From Acidimicrobiales bacterium (GTDB lineage Bacteria > Actinomycetota > Acidimicrobiia > Acidimicrobiales > Aldehydirespiratoraceae): a DNA stretch of 64,000 nucleotides. The notes under the pieces were generated by a model. It did not search any database, was not told the DNA's origin, and worked only from the letters and a program-made list of their open reading frames with translations. The DNA lies in the NCBI GenBank assembly GCA_965116965.1, contig OZ220743.1, positions 111,262-175,261 on the forward strand, written 5' to 3'. This document shows positions 12,492-50,686 of the stretch, in pieces. A program made the position numbers and the translations under genes. The first letter of the stretch is position 1, and every line of letters starts with the position of its first letter.

Positions 12492-13462
12492 TCCCCCGCC
12501 ACGAAATCGACGCGGCGGCGCGGCAGCGCCCGGGCTGGGACACTCAGCAAGTCGAGCAGGACATCGTGCTCACACGGCTGATGGCGGAGGTCGCCGACGA
12601 CAAGTACCTGGCCGGCGCGCTCGTGCTCAAGGGAGGCACCTGCCTGCACAAGCTGTGGCTGCCCGAGCCGTGGCGCTACAGCAAAGACCTCGATTATGCC
12701 CGCACCGAGGACACTCCCATGGGCGCGATCTTTGACGCTTTGCGCGCCGCGGGCCAGCGGGTCGGGCTAGACCCGGACAGGACGCGCGTCAACTCTGGAC
12801 GGTTGGTGTCACATGTCACCTACAGGGCCACCTACGCCGACGGCGCGACCATGAAGATCACAGTCGACATCCCCACCAGCCCGTCGGCGGTCCCGGCCCT
12901 GACGCAGACCCGCGTCCTGGCCCTCCCAGGAGGCAGCCACGTCACATCAGTAGAGATCGTCTCGGTCACCCCCGCTGAGATGATCGCCTCCAAAGCAGCC
13001 GCCGTCTTCGGCCGCAGACAGCCCCGCGACGCATACGACGTGTGGGCGGCCGCAACGGCGGGGCTAACCACAGCCCAGCAGGCTGCGGCGCGCTTCCAGC
13101 ACTATCGAGCCCCCGTCTGGAGCCTACGCCGCGCCGTCTCGAACCTCGACGCCAAGTGGGCCGACCCGAACTACCTCGCCGAGATGAAGGCCTTCGGGGC
13201 GCAGGCGCCGGTGCCGTTCGAGCTCGACGCGTGCCGCTCCGCCGTTGACGAGTTGATGGTCGAATGCTCCTTCAACTCGCACCCTGTGGCCAACCCCGCC
13301 TCCTCAGACACAGCCAACGAGCAGCGACCGCAACGACCCGAAGACCTTGACCCAGCAGCGACGAGACCCCAGAACCCCAAACGGCCACAGATCGAAGACG
13401 CGCTCCGCAAAGGCAACAGAACACAGGCCCAGATCGCGAAGGCGCTAGTGGTCCGTCGCTGA
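12488..13462 (+). CDS. abiEii: nucleotidyltransferase toxin, AbiEii/AbiGii family
   Basis: VEQDIVLTRLMAEV...LVLKGGTCLHKLWLPEPWRYSKDLDY matches the characteristic N-terminal nucleotidyltransferase core of AbiEii. The last five codons and the stop lie inside the MITE-like repeat. Confidence 0.85.
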   Translation: MIPRHEIDAAARQRPGWDTQQVEQDIVLTRLMAEVADDKYLAGALVLKGGTCLHKLWLPEPWRYSKDLDYARTEDTPMGAIFDALRAAGQRVGLDPDRTRVNSGRLVSHVTYRATYADGATMKITVDIPTSPSAVPALTQTRVLALPGGSHVTSVEIVSVTPAEMIASKAAAVFGRRQPRDAYDVWAAATAGLTTAQQAAARFQHYRAPVWSLRRAVSNLDAKWADPNYLAEMKAFGAQAPVPFELDACRSAVDELMVECSFNSHPVANPASSDTANEQRPQRPEDLDPAATRPQNPKRPQIEDALRKGNRTQAQIAKALVVRR

Positions 13463-13545
13463 AATGATCGGGGCGTCCGGAGCGCTCTCAAGCAGGGTCT
13501 CGGTCCTGCTGCGCTGCCCTAGCCATTTCGACGACACAGCACTAG
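13445..13545 (+). mobile_element. 93-bp MITE-like element flanked by CTAG duplications (copy 1)
   Basis: About 97% identical to 47778-47878 (3 mismatches). Both copies have identical left and right limits, and CTAG is present on both sides of both copies. Termini are imperfect inverted repeats (tggtccgtcgctga against the reverse complement of the right end, tgctgtgtcgtcga). Confidence 0.6.
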
Positions 13546-13562
13546 CAGGATGAGGAGATGCC

Positions 13563-14020: not shown

Positions 14021-14530
14021 GACATCGAGACGGTGCTCGAGAGCACCTTCGGCCTGTCGCTCGTCGTGGTGGTGCGCTCGCACCGGCAGCTCCGCAATGT
14101 CGTCACCCGGGCACCGGACGGGTTCGGCGCTGCGCCCGACATCCATCACTCCGATGTGATCTTCCTGAAGGCGCCGCTGACGAGCCGTCAAGCTCTGCGA
14201 GCCGTCGAGTTGCGCGACGGCGTCGACCAGGCGTGGCCCGGCACCGGGGTGCTCTACTTCTCGCGCCTCAGCGAGCGGTTGTCGCAGAGCCGGATGAGCC
14301 GGATCGCCAGCACCTCGCAATACCAGAACATGACCATCCGCAACTGGAGGACGACGACCAGGCTGCTGAGCCTCCTCGACGAGCGGAGGGCCGCTCAGGG
14401 CGCTCGGGGCAAGCAGCGTGGCAATCCGGCCGAATCAATGATCAGCGGGGGCGCCGTGTACGGGCCCATAGCCAGCGCACCCCGCCTACGCAAGTCGCTG
14501 TCAGCGTCGCCACCAACAGCACCCACTTGA
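14021..14530 (+). pseudogene. DUF1697-family protein, N-terminally truncated
   Basis: IETVLESTFGLSLVVVVRSHRQLRNVV...VLYFSRLSE...MTIRNWRTTTRLLSLL matches the central and C-terminal DUF1697 pattern. The N-terminal GINVGG region is missing. Confidence 0.6.
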
Positions 14531-20294: not shown

Positions 20295-21734
20295 TTATGG
20301 CGCGTAGGAGAACACGACGTTGCCGACGCTGGCTTCGACGTTCTCCTCGCCGCCGATGTTCTGCACGACGGTGATGCGGGCCGCGCCGCAGTCGCCGAAT
20401 CCGTCGCAGTTGATCGTGCCGATGATGCCGCTGTATCCCTGAACGCTGTTCAGGTGGTCGCGGACGCCCTGGCGGTCGATCATCAGGCTGCCGTCCTCAA
20501 GCCAGGACGCGGCCTTGACGGCATCGAGCAGCAGCGTGGTGGCGTCGTAGCTGTGGGCCCAGAACGGCGCCGCCGGGATCTCGCCGTAGCGCTCCTCGTA
20601 GACGGCCAGGAAGTCGTCGGCGGTCTTGCCGGTGCTCTGGTTGACGTTGGTGCCGAAGCGGGTGTCCGGACCGGACAGGTACATGCCCGCGGTCTGCGGC
20701 AGCGACAGATAGCTGGTGTTCAACAAGCCGTCGGCGGCCATCAGGATCGTGTCCTCCAGCCCCGGAACCCCCGGCGCCTGGTCGGCCACGAAGTCGCCGG
20801 CCGGCTGGAAGATCGGGAAGAACAGCGCAGCCGGGCTGCCTGCGGCGATCTCGGTGAGCGCCGGCACCATGTCGGTGTCCTCCTTGTTGACTGCGGTGAA
20901 GCCCGTGACCGTTCCGCCTTCGGCCTCGAAGGCGTCCGCGAATGCTTGCGCGAGCCCCTGGGTATAGGGGTCGCCGTCATGGATCGCGGCGGCAGCGCCG
21001 ATGCCCAACTCGGAGAACACGAACCTGGCCATGGCCGCGCCCTGGTACAGGTCGTTGTGAGCCGTGCGGTAGTAGCCGACGCTGTAGTTGTTCCCCGGGT
21101 TCCCGACCAGATCAGACGTCAGCGAGGGTGAGGTGTTGCTCGGGGAGATCAGCACCATTCCAGCGTCGGTGATCAGCGGGGCTGCGGCCGTGGCCGCGCC
21201 CGAGCACGACGTGCCGATCACGCCGACCACATCCTCGTCGGCGACGATGGCCTGGGCCGCGGCCTGCCCGCCGTCGGCGGAGCACAGGTCGTCGAGCCCC
21301 GTGCCCAAGTCCACGTCGAAGCCGTGGATCGAGCCGTAGTCCTCAATGGCCAGGGTGCTGGCCCGCTGGTTGGGAAGACCCAGGAAAGCGACGTCGCCGG
21401 AGATCGCCTGAAGCGAACGGATCTGGATCGCGTCACCCGCCTCGACCTCGACGACGCCCAGCGAGCCGTCACCGAGATGCTCCATCATCGCTTCTTCCTC
21501 AGCAGGAGCCTCCTCGTCGGGCTCCGGCGCCTCCTCGTCAGGAGCCTCCTCGTCGGGCTCCGGCGCCTCCTCGTCGGGCGCCTCCTCGGGCTCCGGCGCG
21601 ACCGGCTCTGCGGGCGCGGCAGGAGCGTCGTCGTCGACATCGTCGTCGCTGCAAGCCGCGGCAATGAGCGATAGCGACGCCAACACTCCAAGAGCGGCCA
21701 GCAGACGCCCGAATTTGCTGCGTCGTGGGTTCAT
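20295..21734 (-). CDS. ABC transporter substrate-binding lipoprotein, LivJ/type-I periplasmic binding protein family
   Basis: The internal ATG at 21734 gives MNPRRSKFGRLLAALGVLASLSLIAAACSDDD (signal peptide plus lipobox). An acidic EEAPDEEAPEPD repeat linker follows, then a Leu/Ile/Val-binding-like domain (VIGTSCSGAATAAAPLITDAGMVLISPSNTSP). Confidence 0.85.
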   Translation of the reverse strand: MNPRRSKFGRLLAALGVLASLSLIAAACSDDDVDDDAPAAPAEPVAPEPEEAPDEEAPEPDEEAPDEEAPEPDEEAPAEEEAMMEHLGDGSLGVVEVEAGDAIQIRSLQAISGDVAFLGLPNQRASTLAIEDYGSIHGFDVDLGTGLDDLCSADGGQAAAQAIVADEDVVGVIGTSCSGAATAAAPLITDAGMVLISPSNTSPSLTSDLVGNPGNNYSVGYYRTAHNDLYQGAAMARFVFSELGIGAAAAIHDGDPYTQGLAQAFADAFEAEGGTVTGFTAVNKEDTDMVPALTEIAAGSPAALFFPIFQPAGDFVADQAPGVPGLEDTILMAADGLLNTSYLSLPQTAGMYLSGPDTRFGTNVNQSTGKTADDFLAVYEERYGEIPAAPFWAHSYDATTLLLDAVKAASWLEDGSLMIDRQGVRDHLNSVQGYSGIIGTINCDGFGDCGAARITVVQNIGGEENVEASVGNVVFSYAP

Positions 21735-31218: not shown

Positions 31219-32481
31219 CTACCGCGCGAAGGGATCGGCGGCTCCGGAGCGGGCACTCGGAGCGAACGTCACCGGCATCGACACCACGCCGGTCATCAGA
31301 AGGTTGCCCGGGTACGGCTCGAAACCCTCGGCGTCGACCTCGTAGTCGCCGATGCGTCTGAGCACGTCGCCCAGCATCAGCTCGGACTCGATGCGGGCTA
31401 TCGACGACCCGATGCAGCGGTGGCCGCCCAGACCGAAGGCCAAGTGCTTGTTGACGGCACGGTCGATGCGCACCTCGTCGGCTCCGTCGAACACCGACGG
31501 ATCGTGATTGGCGGCCACCCAGCTGATGAACACCACATCGCCCCGGCGGATCTGGCGGCCTCCCAACTCCACGTCGCGGGTGGCAGTGCGGGTGAGCGTC
31601 TCACTGGGGCTGTAGAAGCGCAGGAACTCCTCCACCGCTCCGCCGATGAGGCCGGGATCGGCGATCAGCCGGGTCCGGTCGGCGGGATGGGTGCCGAGGT
31701 GGTGCAGGCCCCACGACACCAGCGACGTCGTCGTGTCGAGACCGCCGGCCACCAAGTTCCACATGATCCCGGTGATCTCGTCATCGGTCAGGGGCCGACC
31801 GTCGATGACCGCGGCGACCAGGGCGGAGGTCACGTCGTCCGCCGGGTTGGCTCGCCGGAAGGCGGCGAAGCCGGCTAGTTCGGCCCACATGTCGTCGCGG
31901 CGGGCCACGGCGCTCCGGAACCTGTCATCGGAGGGCTCGTAGGACGCGGTGGCGTGGAAGAAGTCGGCGTAGTGTCTCCAGTTGGACGAATCCATGCCCA
32001 TCAGCTCGAGGGTCAGCACCGCCGGCACCGGGGTGGCGTAGTCAAGGACCAGATCGGCGGCGCCGGCCTCGGTGATCTGGTCGAGGAACCAGGCCGAGAC
32101 CGCCTCCATCCTCGGTCGCCGGCACTCGATGACACGAGTGGTCATATGCGGGTTGAGCACCCGGCGCAGGTCGGCGTGCTCGGGTCCGTCGACCTCCGAC
32201 ACCCCCATGCGGGGCACATGAGGCGGCCGGGGAATGCCGCAGACGCCGTGGTAGGAGATCCCGTCGTCGGAGTCGGGCTCGTACTTGTGGGCGAAGGTGT
32301 CGTTGTCGCGGGCCACCGCGGCCACCGACTCGTAGTCGGTGACCATCCAGAAGCCCCCGTAGCGCTGGTTGAACACCACCGGGCACCGGTCCCGCAACTC
32401 GGCATATCGGCCGTGGCGATCAGCAATGAAGCTCGGGGCTTGATGGTCAACATCGATGGTGCCGTGGGGCAGGTCTTGCAT
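31219..32481 (-). CDS. cytochrome P450
   Basis: Heme-binding loop FGLGGHRCIGSSIA, the EEFLRFYSP (E-x-x-R) motif and the I-helix NLVAGGLDTT. Confidence 0.9.
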   Translation of the reverse strand: MQDLPHGTIDVDHQAPSFIADRHGRYAELRDRCPVVFNQRYGGFWMVTDYESVAAVARDNDTFAHKYEPDSDDGISYHGVCGIPRPPHVPRMGVSEVDGPEHADLRRVLNPHMTTRVIECRRPRMEAVSAWFLDQITEAGAADLVLDYATPVPAVLTLELMGMDSSNWRHYADFFHATASYEPSDDRFRSAVARRDDMWAELAGFAAFRRANPADDVTSALVAAVIDGRPLTDDEITGIMWNLVAGGLDTTTSLVSWGLHHLGTHPADRTRLIADPGLIGGAVEEFLRFYSPSETLTRTATRDVELGGRQIRRGDVVFISWVAANHDPSVFDGADEVRIDRAVNKHLAFGLGGHRCIGSSIARIESELMLGDVLRRIGDYEVDAEGFEPYPGNLLMTGVVSMPVTFAPSARSGAADPFAR

Positions 32482-32576
32482 AGGTCTGGCCGATCCCGGT
32501 GCCGCGCATCGTACCCCGGTCGAGAGTCGCAGACAGGACCGGCGAGCCCCCCAACCCGGAGGCCGAGCGGGCAGGC

Positions 32577-32815
32577 GCGCGAGTCGGGGCCCAAGCGGGC
32601 GAGGCCGTGGCCCGAGCAGCCCTCAGGTCGCGGGACGCGCGAGTCGGGGCCCAAGCGGGCGAGGCCGTACGGGCGAGCGGCCCTCAGGTCGCGGGACGCG
32701 CGAGTCGGGGCCCAAGCGGGCGAGGCCGTGGCCCGAGCAGCCCTCAGGTCGCGGGACGCGCGAGTCGGGGCCCAAGCGGGCGAGGCCGTACGGGCGAGCG
32801 GCCCTCAGGTCGCAG
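32577..32815 (+). repeat. tandem array, 4 units of 60/61 bp (two alternating variants), related to the dispersed intergenic element
   Basis: gcgcgagtcggggcccaagcgggcgaggccgtggcccgagcagccctcaggtcgcgggac alternates with a ...gtacgggcgagcggcc... variant. Unit starts are at 32577, 32637, 32698 and 32758. The last unit ends ...cgcagcgaacgagatcgggag, as in the single-copy elements. Confidence 0.9.
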
Positions 32816-33000
32816 CGAACGAGATCGGGAGACACTCCGCCGCACCGTGACTGGCTTCTGCGCGCCCGCGCGTGTTCTAGGGTGAAGACGATCCCGGAGC
32901 GGTTCTTCTTGGCGGCTTGCGCACGCCCGCGCGTGTTCTAGGGTCTTCGGCGGTGACTGACCAGCCAGAAGACCAGGCAGCCGGCCGCGCCGCACCGGCC

Positions 33001-34686
33001 ATGACGGTGGCAGAGGCCGACGCCGCCCTCACCGGCCCGGGCGGGTTCTTCGAGATCGTCACCGAGAACGTCGGCGGGATCGAGATGGGAGTGGTGGCCG
33101 GCCCGCACCAGAGCCTGCGAGACCTGCTGGCCGCCTCGGCAAACCACGGCGGCGACGGCTCGGCCCGCTACTACCTCTTCGACGACGGCCGCCGCGCCAC
33201 TTTCGCCGAGAACATCGACCACGCCGCGGCAGTGGCCGCGGCCCTCTCACAGCGCTACGGGGTGGAGCCCGGCGACCGGGTGGGCCTGCTGGGATCCAAC
33301 CAGCCGGGCTGGATCCAGGCATTCTGGGGGACGGTCAGCGCGGGAGCTGTCGCGGTGGCCATGAACGGCTGGTGGAAGGGCGACGAGATCCGCTACGGCC
33401 TCGGGCTGACCGAGCCCAAGGTGCTGATCGCCGACCGCCGGCGCCTGGAGCGCCTCCACCACGATCCAGGTGTGCCGGTGATCGCCATGGATCCTGATCC
33501 GGACGCGGCGGCAACGATCGACGGCCTGGTCGACGCCTATGCCGGCACTCCCCTTCCCGACTGTGAGATCGCCATCGACGACCCAGCCGCCATCCTGTTC
33601 ACCTCAGGCACGACGGGCAGGCCCCGGGGCGCCATCCAGACCCAGCGCAACTTCTTCGCCTATCTGACCTGCGCTTTCATGATCGGCGCCCGCCAGTTCA
33701 TGCGCTTCCCGGGCGAGACGATGGACGTCGGCGGGCCGACCCTGGCGTGCAGCCCCCTGTTCCACGTGTCCGGCCTGCACGCCTGCGCGGTGATGGCCGT
33801 CGGAGCCGGCTTCAACCATCTGTGGACCACCGGCCGCTACGACGCCGAGAAGATCTTGCGCCTCACCGAGGAGCACGGCATCGCCCGCTGGTCGGGAGTG
33901 ACCACCCAGGTCTGGCGACTGATCGAGCATCCTCGGTTGAGCGACTACGACACCTCGTCAGTCACCAGCATCGGCGGCGGCGGGTCTGTCTGGTCGCCGG
34001 AGCTGCAGGAGACATGCCGGACCGCCCTGCCCCACGCCCGCATCAGCGTCACCATCGGCTACGGGCTCACCGAGAGCTCGGGTCTGGCCACCAGCGCAGC
34101 CGACGATGTGCTGAAGGCCCATCCCGACTCGGTGGGCTACCCGCTGCCCACCGTCGGTGTGCGCATCACCGACGACGACGGCCGCGAGCTTCCCACCGGC
34201 GAGGTCGGCAACATCTGCCTGTCCGGTCCGGTGGTCACCCCCGGCTACTGGAACGACGCCGCCGCCACCGCGGAGACCATCCGCGACGGCTGGCTGCGCA
34301 CCGGCGACTACGGATACCTCCGGGACGGGCTGCTGTTCCTGGTGAGCCGGCGCAGCGACCTCATCATCCGCGGCGGCGAGAACATCTACCCCGCCGAGAT
34401 CGAGCAGCGCCTCGACGCCCACCCCGCGGTGGCCGAGTCGGCCGTGGTGGGCGTGGAGCACCGGGAGCTGGGCCAGGAGGTGAAGGCAGTCGTGGTGGTC
34501 GGCGAGGAGCCGCCCGCCGCCGACCTGATCGGAGAACTCGAGGCCTGGGTGGCCGCTACATTGGCCGACATCAAGGTTCCGGCCCACTGGGAATTGCGGA
34601 CCGGCCCGCTGCCCCGGAACGCCACCGGCAAGATCCTCAAGCAAGTCGTGCGGGGCGACGCCGACTACGACTTCATCGAGGAGTAG
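33001..34686 (+). CDS. AMP-dependent acyl-CoA synthetase/ligase
   Basis: AMP-binding motifs ILFTSGTTGRPRGA, GYGLTESSG and TGDYGYLRDGLLFLVSRRSDLIIRGGENIYPAEIE. The start is set at ATG 33001; the ORF is open from 32917. Confidence 0.85.
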   Translation: MTVAEADAALTGPGGFFEIVTENVGGIEMGVVAGPHQSLRDLLAASANHGGDGSARYYLFDDGRRATFAENIDHAAAVAAALSQRYGVEPGDRVGLLGSNQPGWIQAFWGTVSAGAVAVAMNGWWKGDEIRYGLGLTEPKVLIADRRRLERLHHDPGVPVIAMDPDPDAAATIDGLVDAYAGTPLPDCEIAIDDPAAILFTSGTTGRPRGAIQTQRNFFAYLTCAFMIGARQFMRFPGETMDVGGPTLACSPLFHVSGLHACAVMAVGAGFNHLWTTGRYDAEKILRLTEEHGIARWSGVTTQVWRLIEHPRLSDYDTSSVTSIGGGGSVWSPELQETCRTALPHARISVTIGYGLTESSGLATSAADDVLKAHPDSVGYPLPTVGVRITDDDGRELPTGEVGNICLSGPVVTPGYWNDAAATAETIRDGWLRTGDYGYLRDGLLFLVSRRSDLIIRGGENIYPAEIEQRLDAHPAVAESAVVGVEHRELGQEVKAVVVVGEEPPAADLIGELEAWVAATLADIKVPAHWELRTGPLPRNATGKILKQVVRGDADYDFIEE

Positions 34687-34723
34687 AAGTAAGGCCAGAG
34701 GCCGAGCGGACAGGAAGAGACCC

Positions 34724-34816
34724 ATGAGCAGCTTCGCGAGGCAGACAGCGAGGCCGTGGCCCGAGCGGCCCGCGAGCGCAGCGAACAAGAGCGGGAGTGA
34801 CGCCCCATGGACATGA
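34724..34816 (+). CDS. 30-codon intercistronic mini-ORF carried by the dispersed element
   Basis: Encodes MSSFARQTARPWPERPASAANKSGSDAPWT. Its TGA (34814-34816) overlaps the second ATG (34813) of the downstream amidohydrolase as ATGA. It is homologous to the mini-ORF at 48705-48797. Confidence 0.45.
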   Translation: MSSFARQTARPWPERPASAANKSGSDAPWT

Positions 34817-36081
34817 ACGACATGATCCTGGTGAGCGTCGACGATCACTTGTGCGAGCCGCCTGACATGTTCGACCATCACCTGCCGGCCAAGTGGCGCG
34901 ACGAGGCCCCCAAGATCCTCCACACCGACAACGGCGACGACGTGTGGACCTTCAACGGCTCGATCATCCCCAACATCGGCCTCAACGCGGTGGCCGGCCG
35001 GCCCAAGGAGGAGTACGGCATCGAGCCGACCAGCTTCGACGAGATCCGGCCCGGCTGCTACAACGTCGGCGAGCGTGTCAAGGACATGAGCGCGGGCGGG
35101 GTGCTCGGATCGATGTGCTTCCCGTCGTTCCCCGGCTTCGCCGGGCGGCTGTTCGCCAACCACCCCGACAAGGACTTCGCGGCCGACCTGATCCGGGCCT
35201 ACAACGACTGGCACATCGGCGAGTGGTGCGGCGCCTACCCGGGCCGGTTCATCCCGATGGCGCTGCCCATGATCTGGTCGGCCGACGAGTGCGCGGCCGA
35301 GGTGCGCCGGGTGTCGGAGTTGGGCTGCCACTCGATGACCTTCACCGAGAACCCGGTCCCGCTGGGCCGGCCCAGCTTCCACGACCGCTACTGGGACCCG
35401 CTGTGGGAGGCCCTGGTGGACTGCGGGACGGTGCTGTCCATCCACCTGGGGTCGTCGGGCCAGATGGTGGTGAGCGCACCCGACGCGCCCATGGACGTGA
35501 TGATCCACATGCAGCCCATGAACACGTCGATCGCGGCCTCCGACCTCTTATGGTCGACGGTGCCGAGGCGGTATCCAGGGCTGAAGATCGCCCTGTCGGA
35601 GGGCGGGTCCGGCTGGGTTCCGTACTTCATGGACCGGGCCGACAAGACCTACGACATGCACCACCTGTGGACCGGCCAGTCCTTCGGCGACCTCAAGCCC
35701 AGCGACGTGTTCCGGCGCAACTTCCTCACCTGCTTCATCTCCGACCCGGTGGGGGTGGCCCTGCGTCACGAGATCGGCATCAACAACCTCTGCTGGGAGA
35801 TGGACTACCCCCACTCGGATTCGAACTGGCCCGAAGCCCCCGAGGAGCTGGTGGAGGTGTTCGAGGGCGTGCCCGACGCCGATATCGACCGGATCACCCA
35901 CCTCAACGCCATGGACTGGTTCAACTACGACCCGTTCTCGGTGCTGGACCGCTCAGACTGCACGGTGGGGGCGCTGCGGGCGTCGGTGGCCGGCCACGAC
36001 GTGTCGATCCAGTCGCGCGACACCGGCCGTCACGGCGGCAAGAACACGTCCCTCCAGGACTTCGCCGTCAAGACCCGCTGA
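34807..36081 (+). CDS. amidohydrolase-2 (ACMSD-like metal-dependent hydrolase/decarboxylase) family protein
   Basis: LVSVDDHLCEPPDMF..., MCFPSFPG..., WEMDYPHSDSNWP are typical amidohydrolase_2 blocks. The alternative start ATG 34813 is coupled to the mini-ORF stop. Confidence 0.8.
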   Translation: MDMNDMILVSVDDHLCEPPDMFDHHLPAKWRDEAPKILHTDNGDDVWTFNGSIIPNIGLNAVAGRPKEEYGIEPTSFDEIRPGCYNVGERVKDMSAGGVLGSMCFPSFPGFAGRLFANHPDKDFAADLIRAYNDWHIGEWCGAYPGRFIPMALPMIWSADECAAEVRRVSELGCHSMTFTENPVPLGRPSFHDRYWDPLWEALVDCGTVLSIHLGSSGQMVVSAPDAPMDVMIHMQPMNTSIAASDLLWSTVPRRYPGLKIALSEGGSGWVPYFMDRADKTYDMHHLWTGQSFGDLKPSDVFRRNFLTCFISDPVGVALRHEIGINNLCWEMDYPHSDSNWPEAPEELVEVFEGVPDADIDRITHLNAMDWFNYDPFSVLDRSDCTVGALRASVAGHDVSIQSRDTGRHGGKNTSLQDFAVKTR

Positions 36082-37848: not shown

Positions 37849-38025
37849 GTGATCCTTGCCGCCATCGTCATCGGCGGGCTGTACCCGGCCTCACTCGCTG
37901 CCTTCATCATTCAGTTCGTCCGGCTGCGGTCTGACATGCACGCGGGTTTCGACAGGCTCGAGACCCGCTTCGACGAACTGTTCGACCGGCTGGAGAGTCA
38001 GGTGCCGATGACTGACTCTCCGTAA
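37849..38025 (+). CDS. small membrane-anchored coiled-coil protein (58 aa, GTG start; below the ORF-track cutoff)
   Basis: My own translation: VILAAIVIGGLYPASLAAFIIQFVRLRSDMHAGFDRLETRFDELFDRLESQVPMTDSP. It has the same TM, LRSD and RLE layout as the neighbouring paralog. The 3' end overlaps the convergent LLM gene. Confidence 0.4.
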   Translation: MILAAIVIGGLYPASLAAFIIQFVRLRSDMHAGFDRLETRFDELFDRLESQVPMTDSP

Positions 38026-38909
38026 TGCTGGAGGGCCTCTAGGGAGCGGTTCAGGGAGTCGGCGGGGATGGGGGCCGCGCACCAGGTGACGCCTAGCTCG
38101 GCCAACTCCTGCAGGGCCTCCGAGTGGGCGTCGGGATTGAAGTCGTCGGCGACGGGGCTACCGCCGGCCAAGGTCATGAACGAGACGTCGATCTCTGCGG
38201 GGTCGCGACCGGCTGACTCGGCTTGACGCCATAGGTCGTCCAGCATCGCTCTCAAGTCGTCGAGTGTCTCCAGCGGGACCGTTCGGGCGGTGGTGGCCAG
38301 CCGTCGGGGGGCGGGGAACGGGACCCAACCGTCGGCGACGGTCGCGACACGCCGGCGGCTGAGGCGGCTGTTGCCTCCGATCCAGATCGGGATCGGCCGC
38401 TCCGGCTTGGGGTTGGCGGTCTGGCCCCGGGCCGTGAAGTTGCGGCCCTCGTAACTGAAGTCGTCGGTGGTCCACACGCCCCGCACGACCTCGATGGCCT
38501 CGTCGAACAGGTCGTTGCGCTCTTCGAAGTCCACTCCGAGGGCCCGGTACTCGCCCTTGAGGTAGCCGGTGCCCACGGCCAGCACGAACCGGCCGTCGGA
38601 CATAGCGTCGATGGTGGCCGCCGACTTAGCCACCAGGAACGGGTTGCGGTAGGGCAGCACCACCACGTTGGGGATCAACTGCACGCGCTCCGTGACCGCG
38701 GCCGTGAAGGCCAGCGCCGCGAAGGGATCGAGCGCGTCGTGGCCGCCGGCCGCCATCCAGCGGTGAGTCGGGGCGGGATGATCGGTGAAGCCAATCCCGT
38801 CGAAGCCGGCCTCCTCGGCCGCCCGGGCGAACTCCACGAGCCCTTGGCGCGTCGCGAACTCGGGGCTGCAGCGGCCCGCGGCCAGCGGGTACGTCACCGA
38901 GAACTTCAC
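37998..38909 (-). CDS. LLM-class F420-dependent oxidoreductase
   Basis: MKFSVTYPL..., FDGIGFTDHP, VVLPYRNPFLVAKSAATIDAMSDGRFVLAVGTGY and PIWIGGNS are luciferase-like monooxygenase family blocks. It uses a GTG start. Confidence 0.85.
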   Translation of the reverse strand: MKFSVTYPLAAGRCSPEFATRQGLVEFARAAEEAGFDGIGFTDHPAPTHRWMAAGGHDALDPFAALAFTAAVTERVQLIPNVVVLPYRNPFLVAKSAATIDAMSDGRFVLAVGTGYLKGEYRALGVDFEERNDLFDEAIEVVRGVWTTDDFSYEGRNFTARGQTANPKPERPIPIWIGGNSRLSRRRVATVADGWVPFPAPRRLATTARTVPLETLDDLRAMLDDLWRQAESAGRDPAEIDVSFMTLAGGSPVADDFNPDAHSEALQELAELGVTWCAAPIPADSLNRSLEALQHYGESVIGT

Positions 38910-39234
38910 GAACGAACCCTCCCGGCTGCCAACGCGAACCCGGCGATAGGCAAGAGCGCCACCGAGAACTTCACGAACGAACCCTCCCAGCTGCCAACGC
39001 GAACCCGGCGATAGGCAAGAGCGCCACCGAGAACTTCACGAACGAACCCTCCCAGCTGCCAACGCGAACCCGGCGATAGGCAAGAGCGCCACCGAGAACT
39101 TCACGAACGAACCCTCCCAGCTGCCAACGCGAACCCGGCGATAGGCAAGAGCGCCACCGAGAACGTCACGAACGAACTCTCCCAGCTCCCAGCTCGAACG
39201 CAACGGCAGGCACGAGCATCACCGAGAACTTCAC
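38906..39234 (-). repeat. tandem array of five 65-bp units, each a 22-codon mini-cistron (relay between the FGGY kinase stop and the LLM start)
   Basis: Unit starts (GTG) are at 39234, 39169, 39104, 39039 and 38974. Each reads GTG AAG/ACG TTC TCG GTG ... GGG AGG GTT CGT TCG TGA (MKFSVALLPIAGFALAAGRVRS). Each TGA overlaps the next GTG, and the final TGA overlaps the LLM GTG at 38909. Confidence 0.9.
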
Positions 39235-40559
39235 CGGTCGGCGCCCTCACGGAAGCGGCGGTAGCGCCCCTCGGCGCCGGCGGCGTGCCCGGCGCGGGGC
39301 TCCAACCGATGCGACACCCGGCCCCAGCGCCGGGCCTGCGACGTGTCGGCCTCCAGTCCGGCGGTGACCCGGCTGTGGTAGGCCGCACCGAGAGCGGCGC
39401 TATAGGGCTCGGCCGACACGTCCACGGCCAGGCCTGTCGTGTCGGCCAGCGCCTGCATCCAGGCCGGCGACTGGGTCCCGCCGCCGACGGCGACGATCCG
39501 CGAGGCGTCGAGACCGGAGAGCTCTACGTGGTGGCGCACCACGAAGCCGGCCGCCTCGTAGGCGGCCATCAGGACATGGGCCGATGTGTGGCCGACGTGA
39601 AGGTCGAGCAACTCGGCCCGGCGATCGGGATCGTGCAACGGGGTGCGCTCCCCTCTCGGATAGGGCAGCCACACGGGTAGGTCGTCACCGTCGAGCGCCA
39701 GCAGATCTCCAGAGTCCGGGTCGCCCACCAGAGCCCGGACCCGGTCGACGAACAGGCCGCCGGCGTTACTGGCCCCGCCCACGGCCATGATGCCGGCCCG
39801 GGCCGAGGGGAACGTCCACAACCCGTCGACCTCGACCCACTGATCGGTCATCACCCACGGCAGCAGCGTGGTTCCGCACATCACCAGCACGTCGCCGGCA
39901 TCGCCGCAGGGCGCGACGAGCTGCTCCCCCAGCACGTCGATGGTCCCGGCCGACACCAGGGCGCCGTCACGCTCGCCGATGGCGGCCGCCCCCGGGCTGA
40001 TGGCCGGGAGCTGCTCCGAGGTCATGCCGATCTCATCGAGCAACTCGGGCGCCCAGCCCTGCCCGTCGGACATCGGGGTCAGAGCCATGGCGGTGGAGGA
40101 GTCGAGGGCGGCCACGCCGCACAGGGCGCGGTTGGCCGCGGCCTGTGCCGGCCACAGAGCCTCCACCCCGTCACAGCCGGCCAACCAGCGAGCAAACCCG
40201 ACGGCCTCCCCGTCAGTGGCCTCAGTACCGGTTCCGACGCCTCGGCCGCGAGCGTCACCGTAGAGCAGACCAACGGTGACCGGCGTTCCGGCCGAGTCGA
40301 CTCCGCACATGGACGGCACCATGGCGGAGACGGTGACGGCGGCGATGGATCGATCGGCGGTGCCGGCCAGCATCTGGTCCCAGGCGCCGAGCACGCCGTC
40401 GATCCACGCGCCCTGAGGATCGTGCTCGAACTGGCCGGGATCGGTCGACACGACCCGGTGAGGGATCCGGGCCCGGGCCAGGACCGCACCGTCGCCGTCG
40501 GCGGCCACAGCCTTGACCGAGGTCGTCCCGATGTCGATCCCTACCGTCACCTCGTCCAT
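39231..40559 (-). CDS. FGGY-family carbohydrate kinase (xylulokinase-like)
   Basis: N-terminal VTVGIDIGTTSVKAVA, and C-terminal VAVGGGTQSPAWMQALADTTGLAV. Confidence 0.85.
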   Translation of the reverse strand: MDEVTVGIDIGTTSVKAVAADGDGAVLARARIPHRVVSTDPGQFEHDPQGAWIDGVLGAWDQMLAGTADRSIAAVTVSAMVPSMCGVDSAGTPVTVGLLYGDARGRGVGTGTEATDGEAVGFARWLAGCDGVEALWPAQAAANRALCGVAALDSSTAMALTPMSDGQGWAPELLDEIGMTSEQLPAISPGAAAIGERDGALVSAGTIDVLGEQLVAPCGDAGDVLVMCGTTLLPWVMTDQWVEVDGLWTFPSARAGIMAVGGASNAGGLFVDRVRALVGDPDSGDLLALDGDDLPVWLPYPRGERTPLHDPDRRAELLDLHVGHTSAHVLMAAYEAAGFVVRHHVELSGLDASRIVAVGGGTQSPAWMQALADTTGLAVDVSAEPYSAALGAAYHSRVTAGLEADTSQARRWGRVSHRLEPRAGHAAGAEGRYRRFREGADR

Positions 40560-44810: not shown

Positions 44811-46394
44811 GTGAGCCGTGTGAGTCTCTGGGAGCGGCCGGACGTTCACGCCCGGCGCTGGTTCCTGCTCGGCGTGCTGAGCCTGACCCTGGTGCTGGTG
44901 GTCATGTCGGTCTCGGGCCTGAACGTGGCCCTGGCCACCTTGCAGCGGGATGTGGGTGTCACCGGGCCGCAGCTGCAGTGGATCGTCAACACCTACGCGC
45001 TCGCCTTCGGCGGGCTGCTGATGACCGGCGGAGCCATCGGCGACCGCTACGGCCGCAAGGGCGCCCTGCTCGGAGGCCTGCTCGTGTTCGGGCTCGGCGC
45101 GCTCCTCGGAGGCTTGGCCGACTCGGCCGAGGTCATCCTGGTCGCCCGGGGAGCCATGGGGGTGGCGGCCGCCTTCGTCATGCCGGCCACGCTGTCGCTG
45201 CTGATCGAGATCTTCCCGCCGCCGGAGAGGCCGACCGCCATCGCGGTGTGGTCGGGCTTCGCCGGGGGCGGCGCCGCCATCGGGCCCGCGCTGACCGGCC
45301 TGTTCGTGACCGGATGGTGGTTCGTGCCGTCGTGGGGCTGGGAGGCCGGCTTCCTCTACAACGTCCCGGTGGTGGCGGTGGTGATGGTCGCGGTGGTGCT
45401 GTGGCTGCCCCGATCCCGGGACGAGCACCCCCGGCATCTCGACCCTGCCGGAGCGGCGCTGTCCATCGTGGCCATGACCGCCCTCATCTACGGCATCATC
45501 GAGGGACCCGAGCAGGGCTGGACATCGGCACCGGTGCTCTCGGCCTTCGCGGTGGCGGTCGTCTTCGGTGCGGTCCTGCTGGGGTGGCAGCAGCGAGCCC
45601 GCCATCCGATGCTGCCGCTGGAACTGTTCGGCGACCGGCGCTTCAGCATCGGCTCGGCCGTGGTCACCATGACGTTCGTCGTGATGATCGGGTTCTGGTT
45701 CCTGTTCGCGCTCTACGTGCAGTTCGTCCTGGGATACTCCGCCCTGGAGGCGGGGCTGGCGACCATGCCGGAGGCGCTGGCGTCGATGGTTGTGGCCCCG
45801 TTCACCGCCCCGCTCGCCGCCAGGTACGGATCGCGCCGGATCATGGCGGTCGGCTTCGCGGTGTTGGCGCTCACATTCCTGCCGCTGGCGATGGTCGACA
45901 CCGATACCAGCTATTGGTTCCTTCTGGGACCGCTGGTGCTGGCCGGGGCGGGTCTCAGCCTGGCCATGACCCCGGCCACCAACGACATCATGGTCGCCAC
46001 TCCCTACGACAAGGCCGGCATCGGCTCGGCCGTCAACGACACCGCCCGCGAGCTGGGGGCGGCGCTGGGCATCGCCACGCTGGGCGCCCTGTCCACCTCG
46101 ATCTACCGCAGCACGGTGGACGTGGCCCAGCTACCGCCCGAGGTGGCCTCCCCGGCGGCCGAGTCGATGGGTGCGGCCATCGAGGCCGCCTACCAGCTGT
46201 CCCGATCGGGCACGCTGGGCGAGGCCGCGGCTCAGGCGACGATCACCGAGACGGGGCAGGCCTTCACCACTGCCTTCGCCCAGACGATGGCGATATCGGG
46301 CGTAGTGTCGGCCCTGGCCGCGGTCGCGCTGCTAGTCGGCCACCTCGCCGAGGCCCGCGCCCGCCCCAGAGGCCGACTGGTAGGCGGCGGATGA
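44811..46394 (+). CDS. MFS transporter, DHA2 (EmrB/QacA, 14-TM) type
   Basis: 527 aa with about 14 hydrophobic segments. Motif GAIGDRYGRKGALLGGL (the MFS motif A-like G-x-x-x-D-R-x-G-R-K). Confidence 0.85.
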   Translation: MSRVSLWERPDVHARRWFLLGVLSLTLVLVVMSVSGLNVALATLQRDVGVTGPQLQWIVNTYALAFGGLLMTGGAIGDRYGRKGALLGGLLVFGLGALLGGLADSAEVILVARGAMGVAAAFVMPATLSLLIEIFPPPERPTAIAVWSGFAGGGAAIGPALTGLFVTGWWFVPSWGWEAGFLYNVPVVAVVMVAVVLWLPRSRDEHPRHLDPAGAALSIVAMTALIYGIIEGPEQGWTSAPVLSAFAVAVVFGAVLLGWQQRARHPMLPLELFGDRRFSIGSAVVTMTFVVMIGFWFLFALYVQFVLGYSALEAGLATMPEALASMVVAPFTAPLAARYGSRRIMAVGFAVLALTFLPLAMVDTDTSYWFLLGPLVLAGAGLSLAMTPATNDIMVATPYDKAGIGSAVNDTARELGAALGIATLGALSTSIYRSTVDVAQLPPEVASPAAESMGAAIEAAYQLSRSGTLGEAAAQATITETGQAFTTAFAQTMAISGVVSALAAVALLVGHLAEARARPRGRLVGGG

Positions 46395-46556
46395 GCGGCG
46401 CCTCTCACCCACCCAGCGAGGCCGTGGCCCGAGCGGCCCGTGAGCGAAGCGAACAACAGCGGGAAGCAACATGCTTCATCGCGACGTCGTTCGATTCATT
46501 TGCACGGACCGGATAACCGTCGAACAACAGCGGGAAGCAACACGCCTCATCGCGAC
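46395..46556 (+). repeat. copy of the dispersed intergenic element plus an internal 36-nt direct duplication
   Basis: agcgaggccgtggcccgagcggcccgtgagcgaagcgaacaacagcggga, then cgaacaacagcgggaagcaaca(t/c)gc(t/c)tcatcgcgac at 46450 and 46521. Confidence 0.8.
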
Positions 46557-46564
46557 TCCGTCAT

Positions 46565-46580
46565 GGCCCAATGATGGGCC
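46565..46580. terminator. short perfect hairpin between convergent MFS genes (possible bidirectional terminator)
   Basis: ggccca-atga-tgggcc. No U-tract follows, so a terminator function is only a guess. Confidence 0.25.
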
Positions 46581-47754: not shown

Positions 47755-47777
47755 GGCGCGAACTCTTCCCTCTCGCT

Positions 47778-47878
47778 CTAGTGGTCCGTCGCTGAAATGA
47801 TCGGGGTGTCCGGAGCGCTCCCAAGCAGGGTCTCGGTCCTGCTGCGCTGCCCTAGCCATTTCGACGACACAGCTCTAG
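47778..47878 (+). mobile_element. 93-bp MITE-like element flanked by CTAG duplications (copy 2)
   Basis: See 13445-13545. It occupies almost the whole spacer between the thioesterase stop (the right-hand CTAG contains that stop codon) and the MFS start. Confidence 0.6.
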
Positions 47879-48705
47879 CCCAGGTCGATGGGACGGATCA
47901 TGCACTCCTGGGCGAAGGAGGCGAGCAGCGCACCGCCGGCGTCGAAGGCGTGGCCCTGGCCGAAGCCCCGGGCCCGGGCCAGCGTGGGCGAGTGCTGCGT
48001 GATCAGGCACCACTGGTCGAGGCGGAACGGGCGGTGGAACCAGACGGTGTGGCTGGTCACTGCGGTGTGGAGGGTGCGGTAGGAGTCGGCCTGGCTCACG
48101 CCCTCGACCGGGAGCAGCACGGTCCCGACGATGGTGAGGTCGGTGGCGTGGGCCAGCAGCGCCTGGTGAACGGCCGGGTCGTCGCCCAACCTCCGGTCCT
48201 CGACGCGGGTCCAGAAGGCGTAGCGGGGAGGAGCCGGTGCGGGGTCCCGCAGGTCTGCGCCGCCCGTCACCCTGGTCGTCCAGGGGATCATGGACATCTC
48301 CGTCGCGGCGGCCTCGTCGGGGTGGCCCGCCTCGGGGGCGGGCTTCTGATGCTCGAAGGCCGACGCGGGCTCCAGCGCGTGCATCGAGAGCAGGGCGGCG
48401 AAGATGGTCCTGCCATGCTGGCCGGCCCGGACCCGGCGCAGCGCGAAGGTCCGTCCGGTCTGGGTCTCCTCCACCTCGAACTCGATTGGATCGGTGGTCG
48501 AACCCTCCCGCGGGAACAGGCAGCTCAACGACTTGACAACCTTGCCCTCGGTGGTGGCCGCCCCCAGCGCGACCGCTTGGGCCAGTAGCTGGCCGCCGAA
48601 GATCCGGGGATAGTCCATCTCGATGTTGGGCGCGGTCCACACGCCCGGCCGCACCGGCTCCACTTCCAGGCAGCCGAGCAGGTCGTCGATGGTGATGACC
48701 GCCAT
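47875..48705 (-). CDS. acyl-CoA thioesterase II (TesB-like, double hot-dog)
   Basis: IFGGQLLAQAV..., SLSCLFPREG... and HTVWFHRPFRLDQW are characteristic of TesB-type thioesterases. Confidence 0.85.
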   Translation of the reverse strand: MAVITIDDLLGCLEVEPVRPGVWTAPNIEMDYPRIFGGQLLAQAVALGAATTEGKVVKSLSCLFPREGSTTDPIEFEVEETQTGRTFALRRVRAGQHGRTIFAALLSMHALEPASAFEHQKPAPEAGHPDEAAATEMSMIPWTTRVTGGADLRDPAPAPPRYAFWTRVEDRRLGDDPAVHQALLAHATDLTIVGTVLLPVEGVSQADSYRTLHTAVTSHTVWFHRPFRLDQWCLITQHSPTLARARGFGQGHAFDAGGALLASFAQECMIRPIDLG

Positions 48706-48797
48706 CAGGACGTCTCGGCGGTTTCATGCCCGCTCTTGTTCGCTGCGCTCACGGGCCGCTCGGGCCACGGCCTCGCTGAGCGTCTCGCCGGGATCAC
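48705..48797 (-). CDS. 30-codon intercistronic mini-ORF carried by the dispersed element
   Basis: Its GTG (48797-48795) overlaps the DUF35 stop (GTGA). It encodes VIPARRSARPWPERPVSAANKSGHETAETS. Its TGA (48707-48705) overlaps the thioesterase ATG at 48705 (TGATG). Confidence 0.5.
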   Translation of the reverse strand: MIPARRSARPWPERPVSAANKSGHETAETS

Positions 48798-49231
48798 CGG
48801 GCGTCACCGCCCAACCGCTCGGCCTCTGCAGGACGGAACAGCGGAACGTGCCACTCGCCGCTCTCCTCGAACAGCACCTCGACCCGCATCCCGATCTCGA
48901 CCTCGTCGATGTCGCAGTCCACGATGTTGGTGCCGATCCGCACCGTCGGATCCTCGTCGAGTTCGACGAGCGCGAAGACATAGGGCGGCGTGAACCCCGG
49001 GATCCACTCCTTGCGATTGATCGTGTACGTGGCCACGGTGCCGGTTCCGGCCACCGGCTCGGGGCCGACCCGGCGCGAGTGGCAGAAGGGGCAGGCCGGG
49101 CCGGGCGGGTGGACCCAGCGGGAGCATTCGCCGCAACGCTGGATCCTGAGCCGGCCGTCGGCCCCGGAACGCCAGTAGAACTCGCTCTCGGGCGAGGCCA
49201 GCACGAACCGGGGCGGGTTGTCCGCGCTCAT
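48794..49231 (-). CDS. Zn-ribbon/OB-fold protein (DUF35), thiolase partner
   Basis: Rubredoxin-like CGECSRWVHPPGPACPFC followed by an OB-fold region. It lies immediately downstream of an SCP-x-type thiolase. Confidence 0.85.
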   Translation of the reverse strand: MSADNPPRFVLASPESEFYWRSGADGRLRIQRCGECSRWVHPPGPACPFCHSRRVGPEPVAGTGTVATYTINRKEWIPGFTPPYVFALVELDEDPTVRIGTNIVDCDIDEVEIGMRVEVLFEESGEWHVPLFRPAEAERLGGDAR

Positions 49232-49511
49232 GACGGTCCCCTGGTCAGCCGGTTGTCCGCGCTCACGACAGGCACCGAGTCAGCCGGTTGTCCGCGCTCA
49301 TGACGGTCCCCTGGTCAGCCGGTTGTCGGCGCTCACGACAGGCACCGAGTCAGCCGGTTGTCCGCGCTCATGACGGTCCCCTGGTCAGCCGGTTGTCGGC
49401 GCTCACGACAGGCACCGAGTCAGCCGGTTGTCCGCGCTCATGACGGTCCCCTGGTCAGCCGGTTGTCGGCGCTCACGACAGGCACCGAGTCAGCCGGTTG
49501 TCGGCGCTCAT
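49228..49511 (-). repeat. tandem array of eight 35-bp units (four 70-bp double units), each a 12-codon mini-cistron (relay between the thiolase stop and the DUF35 start)
   Basis: Starts at 49511, 49476, 49441, 49406, 49371, 49336, 49301 and 49266 alternate ATG and GTG. ATG AGC GCS GAC AAC CGG CTG ACT CGG TGC CTG TCG TGA encodes MSADNRLTRCLS, and GTG AGC GCC GAC AAC CGG CTG ACC AGG GGA CCG TCA TGA encodes SADNRLTRGPS. Every stop overlaps the next start, and the last overlaps the DUF35 ATG at 49231. Confidence 0.9.
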
Positions 49512-50686
49512 GACGGTCCCCTGGTCAGCAGCAGGCATCCGGTCTCGGGGCCGCCGCCGGCTCCGACCGCGACCACCTCGCAGCCGGGGACCTGGACGTT
49601 GGCTGTGCCCCGCAACTGCATCACTGCCTCGTGAAGGTGGCCGAAGCCGTGCAGCCGGCCCGCGGAGAGCTGGCCGCCGGACGTGTTGAGCGGCGCCGGG
49701 CCGTCGGGGCCGATGTTGGCGCCGCCCTCCACGAAGGCCCCGCTCTCCCCCTTGCCGCAGAAGCCCATGGCCTCGATCCAGGCCAGGGTCAACCAGCTGA
49801 AGCCGTCGTACAGCTGAGCGGTGTCCACGTCGTCGACCGTCAGCTCGGTGCGCTCCCACATCGAGGCGGCGGTGTGGCGCATCATCATCGACGTCAGGTC
49901 GTCGAACTGGTCCCAGGAGGGCCGGCCCCGGATGGCGGTCCCCATGGCGTTGACGCCGACCGCGCCCGCCGGGGCGTCGGGTGAGTGGTCGCGGTGCGAG
50001 ACCACCACCGCGGTGGACCCGTCGCAGGGAACATCACAGTCGTAGAGGCACAGCGGGTCGCTGATCATCCGCACGGCCAGGTAGTCGTCGATGGTCATGG
50101 GATCGGTGTAGACGGCCTGGGGGTTGGCCGCCGCGTTGGCCCGCCCGTTGATCGCAATGGCGCCGAGCTGCGTGCGGGTGGTGCCGTAGTCGTGCATGTG
50201 GCGGCGGGCGTAGCAGGCGACCCAGCAGGCGGCCGACGCCGCTCCGTAGGGGATCATGAACTGGAACGGACCGGCCGAGCCGGCCATCGGGCCGCCCCCA
50301 CCGCCGCCGCCGGGGCGCAACGGCCCTCCGCTGCCCTCCACCACGGTGCGGAACACCAGCACGTGGCGAGCCAGGCCGGTCGCCACCGCCAGGATGGCGT
50401 TGTGGACCGCGCCCAGCGGGCCGGCAGTCTCCACGCCCGAGCTGCGCCAGTTGAGCGCCAACCGCAGCGCCTCGTGCAGTTCAGCCCCCATGGCCCCTCC
50501 GAAGGAGCCGCCGAAGCCCGGATAGGTGGACACCCCGTCGATGTCGGCCGTCGTCAGCCCGGCGTCGGCGACCGCCCGGAGTGCGGCCTCGACGGTGAGG
50601 TCGATGCCGGTGCGGTACAGCCGGCGGCCGATCTCAGACTGGGCCGCGCCGCTGATAACGGCCCGCCGCTCCCGAGGCTCACCCAT
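49508..50686 (-). CDS. thiolase-like lipid-transfer (SCP-x-type) protein
   Basis: 392 aa with a thiolase-superfamily fold pattern (VISGAAQSEIGR..., GVSTYPG..., CDVPCDGSTAVVV, GGQLSAGRLHGFGHLHEAVMQLRG). It is paired with a DUF35 gene. Confidence 0.8.
   Translation of the reverse strand: MGEPRERRAVISGAAQSEIGRRLYRTGIDLTVEAALRAVADAGLTTADIDGVSTYPGFGGSFGGAMGAELHEALRLALNWRSSGVETAGPLGAVHNAILAVATGLARHVLVFRTVVEGSGGPLRPGGGGGGGPMAGSAGPFQFMIPYGAASAACWVACYARRHMHDYGTTRTQLGAIAINGRANAAANPQAVYTDPMTIDDYLAVRMISDPLCLYDCDVPCDGSTAVVVSHRDHSPDAPAGAVGVNAMGTAIRGRPSWDQFDDLTSMMMRHTAASMWERTELTVDDVDTAQLYDGFSWLTLAWIEAMGFCGKGESGAFVEGGANIGPDGPAPLNTSGGQLSAGRLHGFGHLHEAVMQLRGTANVQVPGCEVVAVGAGGGPETGCLLLTRGPS

Follow-up and report, generated by a model that had tools for sequence, protein, structure and literature searches.

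The 64,000-nt stretch of contig OZ220743.1 analyzed here (Acidimicrobiales bacterium; hereafter the window, with a G+C content of 68%) contains, between a gene for an AMP-binding, acyl-CoA ligase-like protein and a gene of the Amidohydro_2 family, a short spacer that is probably filled by a truncated copy of a small interspersed repeat, termed the element below. An earlier note, drawn from the sequence of the window alone, had seen in this spacer a device resembling the interspersed repetitive units of mycobacteria (MIRUs), whose conserved 30-codon open reading frame (ORF) hands ribosomes over to the amidohydrolase gene. The features at the locus are:

32953..34686, plus strand: AMP-binding (acyl-CoA ligase-like) gene, Pfam PF00501 and PF13193, stop codon TAG at 34684-34686
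34697..34804, plus strand: 3'-truncated class-B copy of the element, aligned with 140 other copies; nhmmer match 34696-34830
34724..34816, plus strand: 30-codon ORF, translated as MSSFARQTARPWPERPASAANKSGSDAPWT and then a stop
34793..34797, plus strand: element-derived GGGAG, 9 nt before the ATG at 34807
34807..36081, plus strand: Amidohydro_2 gene, Pfam PF04909, start codon ATG at 34807 (MDMNDMILVSVDDHL)

The copy begins with the 5' terminus AGAGGCCGAGCGG, continues with a 52-nt arm, the core GAGGCCGTGGCCCGAGCGGCCC (34750-34771) and then GCGAGCGCAGCGAACAAGAGCGGGAGTGACGCC, and lacks the 3' arm. The ATG at 34724 belongs to a motif of the class-B subfamily, the frame stays open across the GC-rich core, and the stop codon TGA (34814-34816) falls within codons 3-4 of the amidohydrolase gene, because this gene starts at 34807. 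The start of the amidohydrolase is indeed the first ATG, at 34807, and not the second at 34813; the N-terminus M-x-M-N-D-M-I-L is conserved across relatives with 78-95% identity. The ATGA overlap on which the idea of a hand-off had been built does exist, but 34813 is not the gene start, and the ATGA as well as the stop codon of the mini-ORF are host coding sequence (ATGGACATGAAC), present also in relatives without the element and older than the insertion.

The spacer carries no element in L149 (95% identical protein), L197 and L198 (93%), all of which keep a native AGGAGG/GAGGAG Shine-Dalgarno sequence and the start MDMNDMIL. The junctions read:

Window: TAG aagtaaggcc[element]cc ATGGACATGAAC
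L149: ...GAGGAG TAG ccaccccgcagcaAGGAGGaccgcc ATGGACATGAACGAC...
L198: ...TAG cggggaatcggacaaccgcaaggaatcGAGGAGcagcgcc ATGGACATGAAC...

Where relatives have AAGGAGGA or GAGGAG, the window has the GGGAG at 34793-34797, which is the only Shine-Dalgarno-like sequence remaining for the amidohydrolase gene. We infer that this gene now depends for its translation on the GGGAG or on termination-reinitiation behind the mini-ORF, or on the two together. Donation of a Shine-Dalgarno sequence as a general trait of truncated copies was considered and rejected, because GGGAG stood anywhere from 6 to more than 100 nt away from the next start in the 47 short copies, or there was no gene.

Copies of the element in the window

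The recurrence of the spacer sequence at 32.5, 46.4 and, inverted, 48.7 kb was reproduced by string search, repeat finder and nhmmer, so that all copies named in the earlier note are real. A minus-strand match to the 48-nt string 34750-34797, with 3 mismatches, lies at 48727-48774; shuffled versions of the window gave 0 matches. The limits of the further copies, taken from the repeat finder and nhmmer, are:

32558..32880, plus strand: full-length copy with its interior amplified fourfold (60/61-nt units, 32576-32813)
46368..46505, plus strand: roughly full-length copy between convergent MFS genes
48710..48827, minus strand: 3'-truncated class-B copy between co-directional minus-strand genes for a ChsH2-like OB-fold protein and an acyl-CoA thioesterase

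The P450 and ligase genes, which are divergent, flank the 32.5-kb copy, whose 3' end ...GCGCGTGTTCTAG abuts GGT and is partially duplicated at ~32917-32945. At 46.4 kb, the last codons and the stop (46392-46394) of the upstream gene lie inside the element, the 3' part of which is partially repeated at ~46519-46565, and at 48.7 kb the upstream gene terminates 33 nt inside the element. The ORF of the latter copy (48797-48705) reads VIPARRSARPWPERPVSAANKSGHETAETS and then a stop, in the same frame relative to the element as at 34.7 kb, and overlaps both neighbors, its GTG with the upstream TGA (GTGA) and its TGA with the downstream ATG (TGATG). Both ORFs thus translate as originally described and share a relative frame. 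The genes adjoining the window copies are functionally unrelated (P450, AMP-binding ligase, Amidohydro_2, two MFS proteins, acyl-CoA thioesterase, ChsH2-like OB-fold protein).

Two side observations concern the neighboring genes. Since element copies contain the ends of the MFS transporter gene (stop 46392-46394) and of the ChsH2-like OB-fold gene (stop 48794-48796), the final 8-11 codons of both, together with the stops, are element-derived. At the 32.5-kb copy, the 3' end ...GTGTTCTAG together with GGT gives TAGGGT (32875-32953 region), and a second copy of 25 nt including this TAGGGT follows 60 nt downstream, where it precedes the ligase start codon GTG at 32953 by 8 nt; the relatives L040, L077, L197 and L198 have TAGTGT at the corresponding place. 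This arrangement suggests a possible leaderless ligase transcript with a -10 box at the element junction.

Distribution and anatomy of the family

With the 22-nt core as a pattern, a scan of species-representative genomes (one genome per species) returned at least 116 blocks of 8 kb from at least 41 assemblies. All matches listed came from metagenome-assembled genomes (MAGs) of Acidimicrobiia, and none of those listed was mycobacterial. The assemblies include Ca. Aldehydirespirator, Ca. Poriferisodalis and bins labelled SB06xx, APA, CAR and RHO, which we take to be sponge-derived; the repeat is thus spread through uncultured, largely sponge-associated Acidimicrobiia. L040, L077 and L109 are among the blocks syntenic with the window (82-93% nucleotide identity). 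A profile search (nhmmer) of 958 kb from 41 assemblies yielded at least 173 copies. Once the selected copy per block is discounted, the density is ~0.06 copies per kb, which equals that of the window (4 loci in 64 kb) and from which we estimate a couple of hundred copies per genome. The element was not found in 419 kb around amidohydrolase homologues from metagenomes, an exact look-up of the amidohydrolase protein sequence of the window returned no record, and the searchable literature yielded no paper on the core sequences or the family. The original description as a dispersed intergenic repeat is borne out by these data; the family is mainly intergenic, with occasional tandem amplification.

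Alignments of 141 core-containing and of 60 full-length copies define the architecture of the element, which has a length of ~140 nt in the commoner class A and of ~151 nt in class B, with distances from 5' terminus to core of 41-42 and 51-53 nt, respectively; copies range from 60 to 160 nt and have no transposase of their own. According to the alignment consensus, the element starts with (C)T-N-A-GAGGCCGAGCGGATAGG and ends with CCTATCCGCgcacgCTC-T-N-A(G), with the near-invariant core GAGGCCGTGGCCCGAGCGGCCCGTGAGCGCAGCGAACAAGAGCGGGA between the ends; the class-A consensus is AGAGGCCGAGCGGATAGGCGAGCGAATCCGGCCCATACGGGCGAGGCCGTGGCCCGAGCGGCCCGTGAGCGCAGCGAACAAGAGCGGGAAACACACCGCTGCGACGCGACGGGCTCTCACCTATCCGCGCACGCTCTAA. 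The ends form imperfect inverted repeats, AGAG..GCGGATAGG and CCTATCCGC..CTCT (termini also written GAGGCCGAGCGG...CCGC...CTC). Over the 16 pairs of the terminal arms in the 60-copy alignment, 76% of cells were paired, as opposed to 35-49% with the partner slid by 1-3 columns, and 47 cells had changed on both sides versus 15-34 in the slid controls. The 5' terminus and the core are conserved to at least 90%, the arm between them is variable and the 3' arm is conserved to ~60-70%, although the figures for the core are inflated by ascertainment, as loci were fetched by the core pattern. Both flanks read T-N-A, in the context C-T-N-A-G. The middle base was identical on both sides in 8 of 14 evaluable copies (hand tally), compared with ~0.29 expected by chance according to our own estimate, and matching T-N-A flanks suggest a 3-bp target duplication.

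Many copies are incomplete. The 3' arm is missing in 47 of the 125 copies that have the 3' motif of the core, all of which diverge right after ...GAGCGGGA; a ~62-nt form has the 5' end joined straight to the core, and solo cores as well as tandem arrays of cores occur (e.g., L085:1555-1727). Most copies are single, and array periods in the family are 60/61 nt (window), 94 nt (L075) and ~43 nt (L085). In three genomes, the core is split directly behind GCGGCCCGTGAG by a second small insertion of ~95-100 nt (TAGCCCTATGTCAAGCTC...CTCTAC.GAT...), which has direct repeats of core sequence, 7-16 nt long, on its two sides:

L081:7147-7250: core-splitting insertion
L056 ~1250-1345, minus strand: core-splitting insertion
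L109:2839-2940: core-splitting insertion

These three cases point to some factor that targets the core of the element.

Insertion sites

Within ~20 kb of synteny, five sites are occupied in some and empty in other close relatives (window, L040, L109, L149, L197, L198):

Ligase / amidohydrolase site: window occupied; L149, L197, L198 empty
P450 / ligase site: window occupied; L040, L197, L198 empty
Aldolase / enoyl-CoA hydratase site, window position 43916: L109 occupied; window empty
L198:240-391: occupied; window empty
L197:6506-6655: occupied; window empty

The L109 copy at the equivalent of 43916, which together with the window gives the one clean pair of an occupied and an empty site, separates a stop codon from the AGGAGG of the following gene; it has TGA on either side and a 5' junction that is 2 nt short. 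Other copies share their flanks across species (L024/L035/L066 and L036/L088), and because such copies appear to be orthologous, the family looks old and long active. Pairs of inverted 5' termini 0.8-2.8 kb apart enclose ordinary genes (sensor kinase, alpha/beta hydrolases).

Copies lie at gene boundaries or next to them, and their T-N-A ends often fall on stop codons: among co-oriented upstream genes, 30 of 79 have their stop at the 5' terminus (TAA|GAGG, TAG|AGG, TGA|GG), and among converging genes, 7 of 21 have theirs at the 3' terminus. This coincidence would follow from a T-N-A target, since stop codons guarantee such sites at 68% G+C, and a gene stays intact when its stop is duplicated. 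Nearly all of the family is intergenic, with only 2 of ~150 copies inside genes. These two, L022:7657-7797 and L092:6238-6336, are in frame, read ...EAVARAARERSEQERE... and leave their host genes apparently intact. The former lies in a priA-like ORF with a PriA 3'BD domain upstream and coding-type G+C content at third codon positions on both sides, the latter in the linker between the XdhC_CoxI and XdhC_C domains.

Explanations for the spacer and its ORF

With a probability of about 80%, we regard the spacer as a 3'-truncated copy of a small, non-autonomous interspersed repeat of the type of a miniature inverted-repeat transposable element (MITE). The distribution of the family, its inverted ends, the occupied and empty sites, the unrelated neighbors, the coincidence with stop codons, the lack of a conserved ORF and the occurrence in all four gene contexts support this reading. 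The 30-codon ORF appears to be an accident of the 34.7-kb copy rather than a conserved device for passing on ribosomes. The element would have arrived in the spacer between the ligase and amidohydrolase genes once the lineage had separated from the nearest sampled relatives; its 3' third would then have been lost together with the native spacer and the AGGAGG Shine-Dalgarno sequence, leaving the GGGAG of the element 9 nt before the unchanged start at 34807. The ORF would be a by-product of the subfamily ATG, a stop-free GC-rich frame and the stop that codons 3-4 of the host gene contribute. If translation of the amidohydrolase is affected, the effect would be local and incidental, brought about by the putative substitute Shine-Dalgarno sequence or by termination-reinitiation. 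The locus may be viewed as a natural experiment in which a native ribosome-binding site was replaced through insertion.

Several observations weigh against the MITE reading. No autonomous element with matching termini was found in the 958 kb, and the matching flanks of 8 of 14 copies are suggestive of a target-site duplication rather than compelling. Conservation of the 3' arm falls far behind that of the 5' terminus and core; a MITE recognized by a transposase would not usually show this, although ascertainment is partly responsible. Since so many copies lack the 3' arm at a common boundary and solo cores and core arrays occur, the basic unit may be a 5' end plus core, and not a two-ended transposon. 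Finally, the sense bias described below indicates some selection or insertion preference at the transcript level.

An element built for translation, the short ORF of which extends from near an upstream stop to a downstream start and relays ribosomes in the fashion of MIRUs, is very unlikely in our view. Its attraction lies in the two truncated window copies with their shared frame, above all the 48.7-kb ORF overlapping both neighbors, and in a subset of class-B copies in which GGGAGCGAT(T/C)(C/G)ATG provides a Shine-Dalgarno-like sequence and a start at the fixed position -26. In L084, L091 and L109 the ORF reaches the terminal T-N-A, in L109 directly before the AGGAGG of the next gene; moreover, the commonest core-to-end distance places the terminal stop in the frame used at 34.7 kb, and the relay concept has been described for MIRUs (PMC12548453). 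The family as a whole speaks a different language: the ORF taken to be conserved has its ATG at -26 in only 11 of 41 class-B copies, in 4 of which it stops before the core, and in no class-A copy. From core to terminal stop, the frame is open in just 19 of 59 full-length copies. Of the other five frames, four are at least as open as the one used at 34.7 kb; nor is the latter preserved, because arm lengths vary by 1-2 nt (core-to-end distance 94-97 nt; 5' arm 41 versus 42 or 51-53 nt; indels of 1-2 nt common). The MIRU-like placement of ORF ends on flanking stops and starts was found at the stop side, where the termini of the element coincide with stop codons, but hardly at the start side, with the terminal stop overlapping or abutting an ATG in only 4 of 30 full-length copies located upstream of a gene start (TGATG twice, TCATGA, CTAATG). 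As to orientation, after removal of duplicates 50 copies were in sense and 24 in antisense orientation between co-directional genes, whose neighbors were divergent for 22 other copies and convergent for 21. This corresponds to a 2:1 sense bias (50 versus 24; p=0.003) in favor of a relay, whereas a sense relay is impossible for the 57% of copies (67/117) in the other three contexts. At 34.7 kb itself, the stop and the ATGA are host-owned and the real start lies 7 nt upstream of the ORF stop. A relay-competent class-B subfamily may thus exist, but it is a minority. We give next to no credence to a multi-copy gene family for a small protein (...ARPWPERPVSAANKSG...): the motif recurs wherever the frame is open, but it is the nucleotides that are conserved, at each of the three codon positions; a start codon is absent from most copies, starts and stops shift in position, and the two in-frame intragenic copies read another frame. 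The protein-coding reading was rejected on its unconserved starts, frames and arm lengths.

We also consider it unlikely that the element is a host-recruited cis-element like REP/BIME or ERIC, acting as a protein-binding site or as an RNA stem-loop, a possibility that would be compatible with a mobile origin; roles in mRNA stability, termination or chromosome organization may be envisaged. The at least 90% identity of core and 5' terminus across 41 species-level assemblies with varying arms, the persistence of solo cores and of arrays of cores, a 6-bp hairpin (GGCCGT/GCGGCC) that is invariant and predicted in most copies, the seemingly retained orthologous copies and the moderate sense bias would be in line with such recruitment. 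Conversely, core conservation is inflated by retrieval, and Rfam gave no match in the window at gathering thresholds and none on the element in five full-length loci even below these thresholds (E up to 1). RNAalifold on the 60 full-length copies returned only invariant GGCC-type pairs and no covariation, which is not possible in the core because its columns are invariant. Strand-specific RNA structure was tried and rejected, as plus-strand folds were no more stable than minus-strand folds, with 77 G-T versus 105 A-C cells in the terminal helix; the symmetry is as expected for DNA-level inverted repeats. A promoter and terminator scan of 32400-35000 produced nothing above shuffled expectation. 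A further idea is that of a mobile element adapted to a harmless life at gene boundaries. Its T-N-A targeting may direct it to stop codons and regenerate a stop at either end for genes on either strand, its subfamily with Shine-Dalgarno sequence, ATG and an ORF to the terminal stop may represent an independently evolved MIRU-like relay, and another open frame may permit in-frame survival inside proteins (PriA, XdhC). That all three hold jointly seems improbable to us, to about the same degree as recruitment by the host.

With the MITE-like repeat as the preferred explanation, a repeat family is added for a poorly studied, uncultured lineage, in which gene callers otherwise report spurious small proteins (...RPWPERPVSAANKSG...); over-extended or spurious ORF calls were seen at L064 and L077. 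As close relatives differ in which sites are occupied, the element makes a useful strain-level marker in sponge symbionts.

Relay arrays and other repeats

Two further arrays of the window, distinct from the element, have the features of MIRU-style relays. On the minus strand at 38906-39234, five 65-nt units (3n+2) each contain a 22-codon ORF (VKFSVALLPIAGFALAAGRVRS), with a 4-nt overlap between its TGA and the following GTG, and the chain spans from the GTGA at 39234 (stop of gene 39231..40559) to the real start GTG at 38909 (gene 37998..38909). At this junction, L109 has a plain ATGA only and L196:3104-3166 at least one unit. Likewise on the minus strand, eight 35-nt units (3n+2) at 49228-49511 with alternating ATG and GTG starts encode 12-codon ORFs (MSADNRLTRCLS / VSADNRLTRGPS) that are linked via NTGA overlaps, from the ATGA at 49511 (stop of gene 49508..50686) to the ATG at 49231 of the ChsH2-like gene. 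Judged by unit length and overlaps, both appear to be genuine MIRU-style relay arrays, and they are a better place than the element for studying ribosome relay outside mycobacteria.

In the 93%-identical relative L197, three of four tandem arrays (9912-9994, 17199-17449, 20635-20742) repeat every 35, 47 and 41 nt, lengths that are each 2 mod 3, while the fourth (14225-14338) has a period of 33 nt. The 35-nt array duplicates the ligase stop region inside the ligase-amidohydrolase spacer, and the consensus of the 47-nt unit carries, in our own reading, GGACGATGA and an ATGA overlap. A tendency across the lineage for stop/start junctions to be expanded in relay-preserving steps is suggested by these arrays.

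Two other repeats of the window are mentioned for completeness. A CTAG-bounded intergenic repeat of 105 nt (13442-13546 and 47775-47879; 96% identical) is unrelated to the element, absent from all fetched loci and without a match in Rfam. A 125-nt repeat (9722-9846 and 11185-11309; 90% identical) apparently comprises the upstream region and first codons (ATGGGAACAGCCCGC...) of two neighboring ORFs. Outside the window, the Ca. Aldehydirespirator MAG L013 contains, at L013:2091-2190 and L013:5127-5201, a match to the Rfam family PYLIS_3, the mttB pyrrolysine insertion sequence (44.9 bits versus a gathering threshold of 38), and a tRNA gene 30 nt from a full-length copy of the element.

Comparison with known systems

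REP/BIME sequences are 20-40-nt palindromes with a GTAG-type head that form alternating clusters near RAYT genes, whereas the unit of the element is far longer and usually single. With the Rickettsia palindromic elements (RPEs), the element shares in-frame copies within intact genes (L022, L092), but only 2 of its ~150 copies are intragenic, and host and sequence are unrelated. Correia elements of Neisseria and ERIC/IRU sequences of enterobacteria are imperfect palindromes of 100-155 nt at gene boundaries that are co-transcribed and can alter the expression of neighboring genes. The location at gene boundaries, the imperfect palindromes and the coexistence of full-length and internally deleted forms are common to these and the element; however, there is no sequence relationship, we have no evidence of promoters, RNase III processing or IHF sites in the element, and its target looks like T-N-A rather than TA.

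MIRUs are reportedly oriented like the co-directional genes that flank them, an observation attributed to Supply et al. in 1997. They insert at start codons, with an internal ORF coupled at a spacing of -4 nt (PMC12548453), consist of units of 77 and 53 bp (PMC2453075) and are taxonomically restricted to mycobacteria (M. tuberculosis complex, M. leprae) (PMC4213456). Like MIRUs, the element is intergenic, occasionally tandem and probably mobile, its termini lie on flanking stops, and some copies have a short ORF that reaches a start codon. It differs in its host, Acidimicrobiia instead of Mycobacterium, in its unconserved ORF, in an orientation bias of 2:1 only, in its mostly single copies and in being bounded by inverted repeats. 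Furthermore, the MIRU units are 2 mod 3 in length, unlike the array periods of the element (60/61, 94 and ~43 nt). The likeness to MIRUs is therefore only loose, as host, coupled ORF, orientation and 3n+2 units set the element apart from their descriptions.

With MITEs in general, the element shares its shortness, its dispersal in many copies without a transposase of its own, its terminal inverted repeats and its insertion polymorphism. MITEs with a T-N-A target duplication are the Tourist-like ones, mobilized by PIF/Harbinger or IS5-family transposases. A cognate transposase was not found in the 958 kb scanned; moreover, the 3' inverted repeat of the element is poor, its internal core near-invariant and its 3' arm often missing, in all of which, as in its uncultured acidimicrobial hosts, it differs from Tourist-like MITEs. 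Common to both are a size of 60-160 nt, inverted ends, T-N-A on both flanks within C-T-N-A-G, copy numbers estimated at a couple of hundred per genome, sites that are occupied or empty among relatives, and deletion derivatives. The closest known kind is a MITE with T-N-A flanks, of the Tourist-like type.

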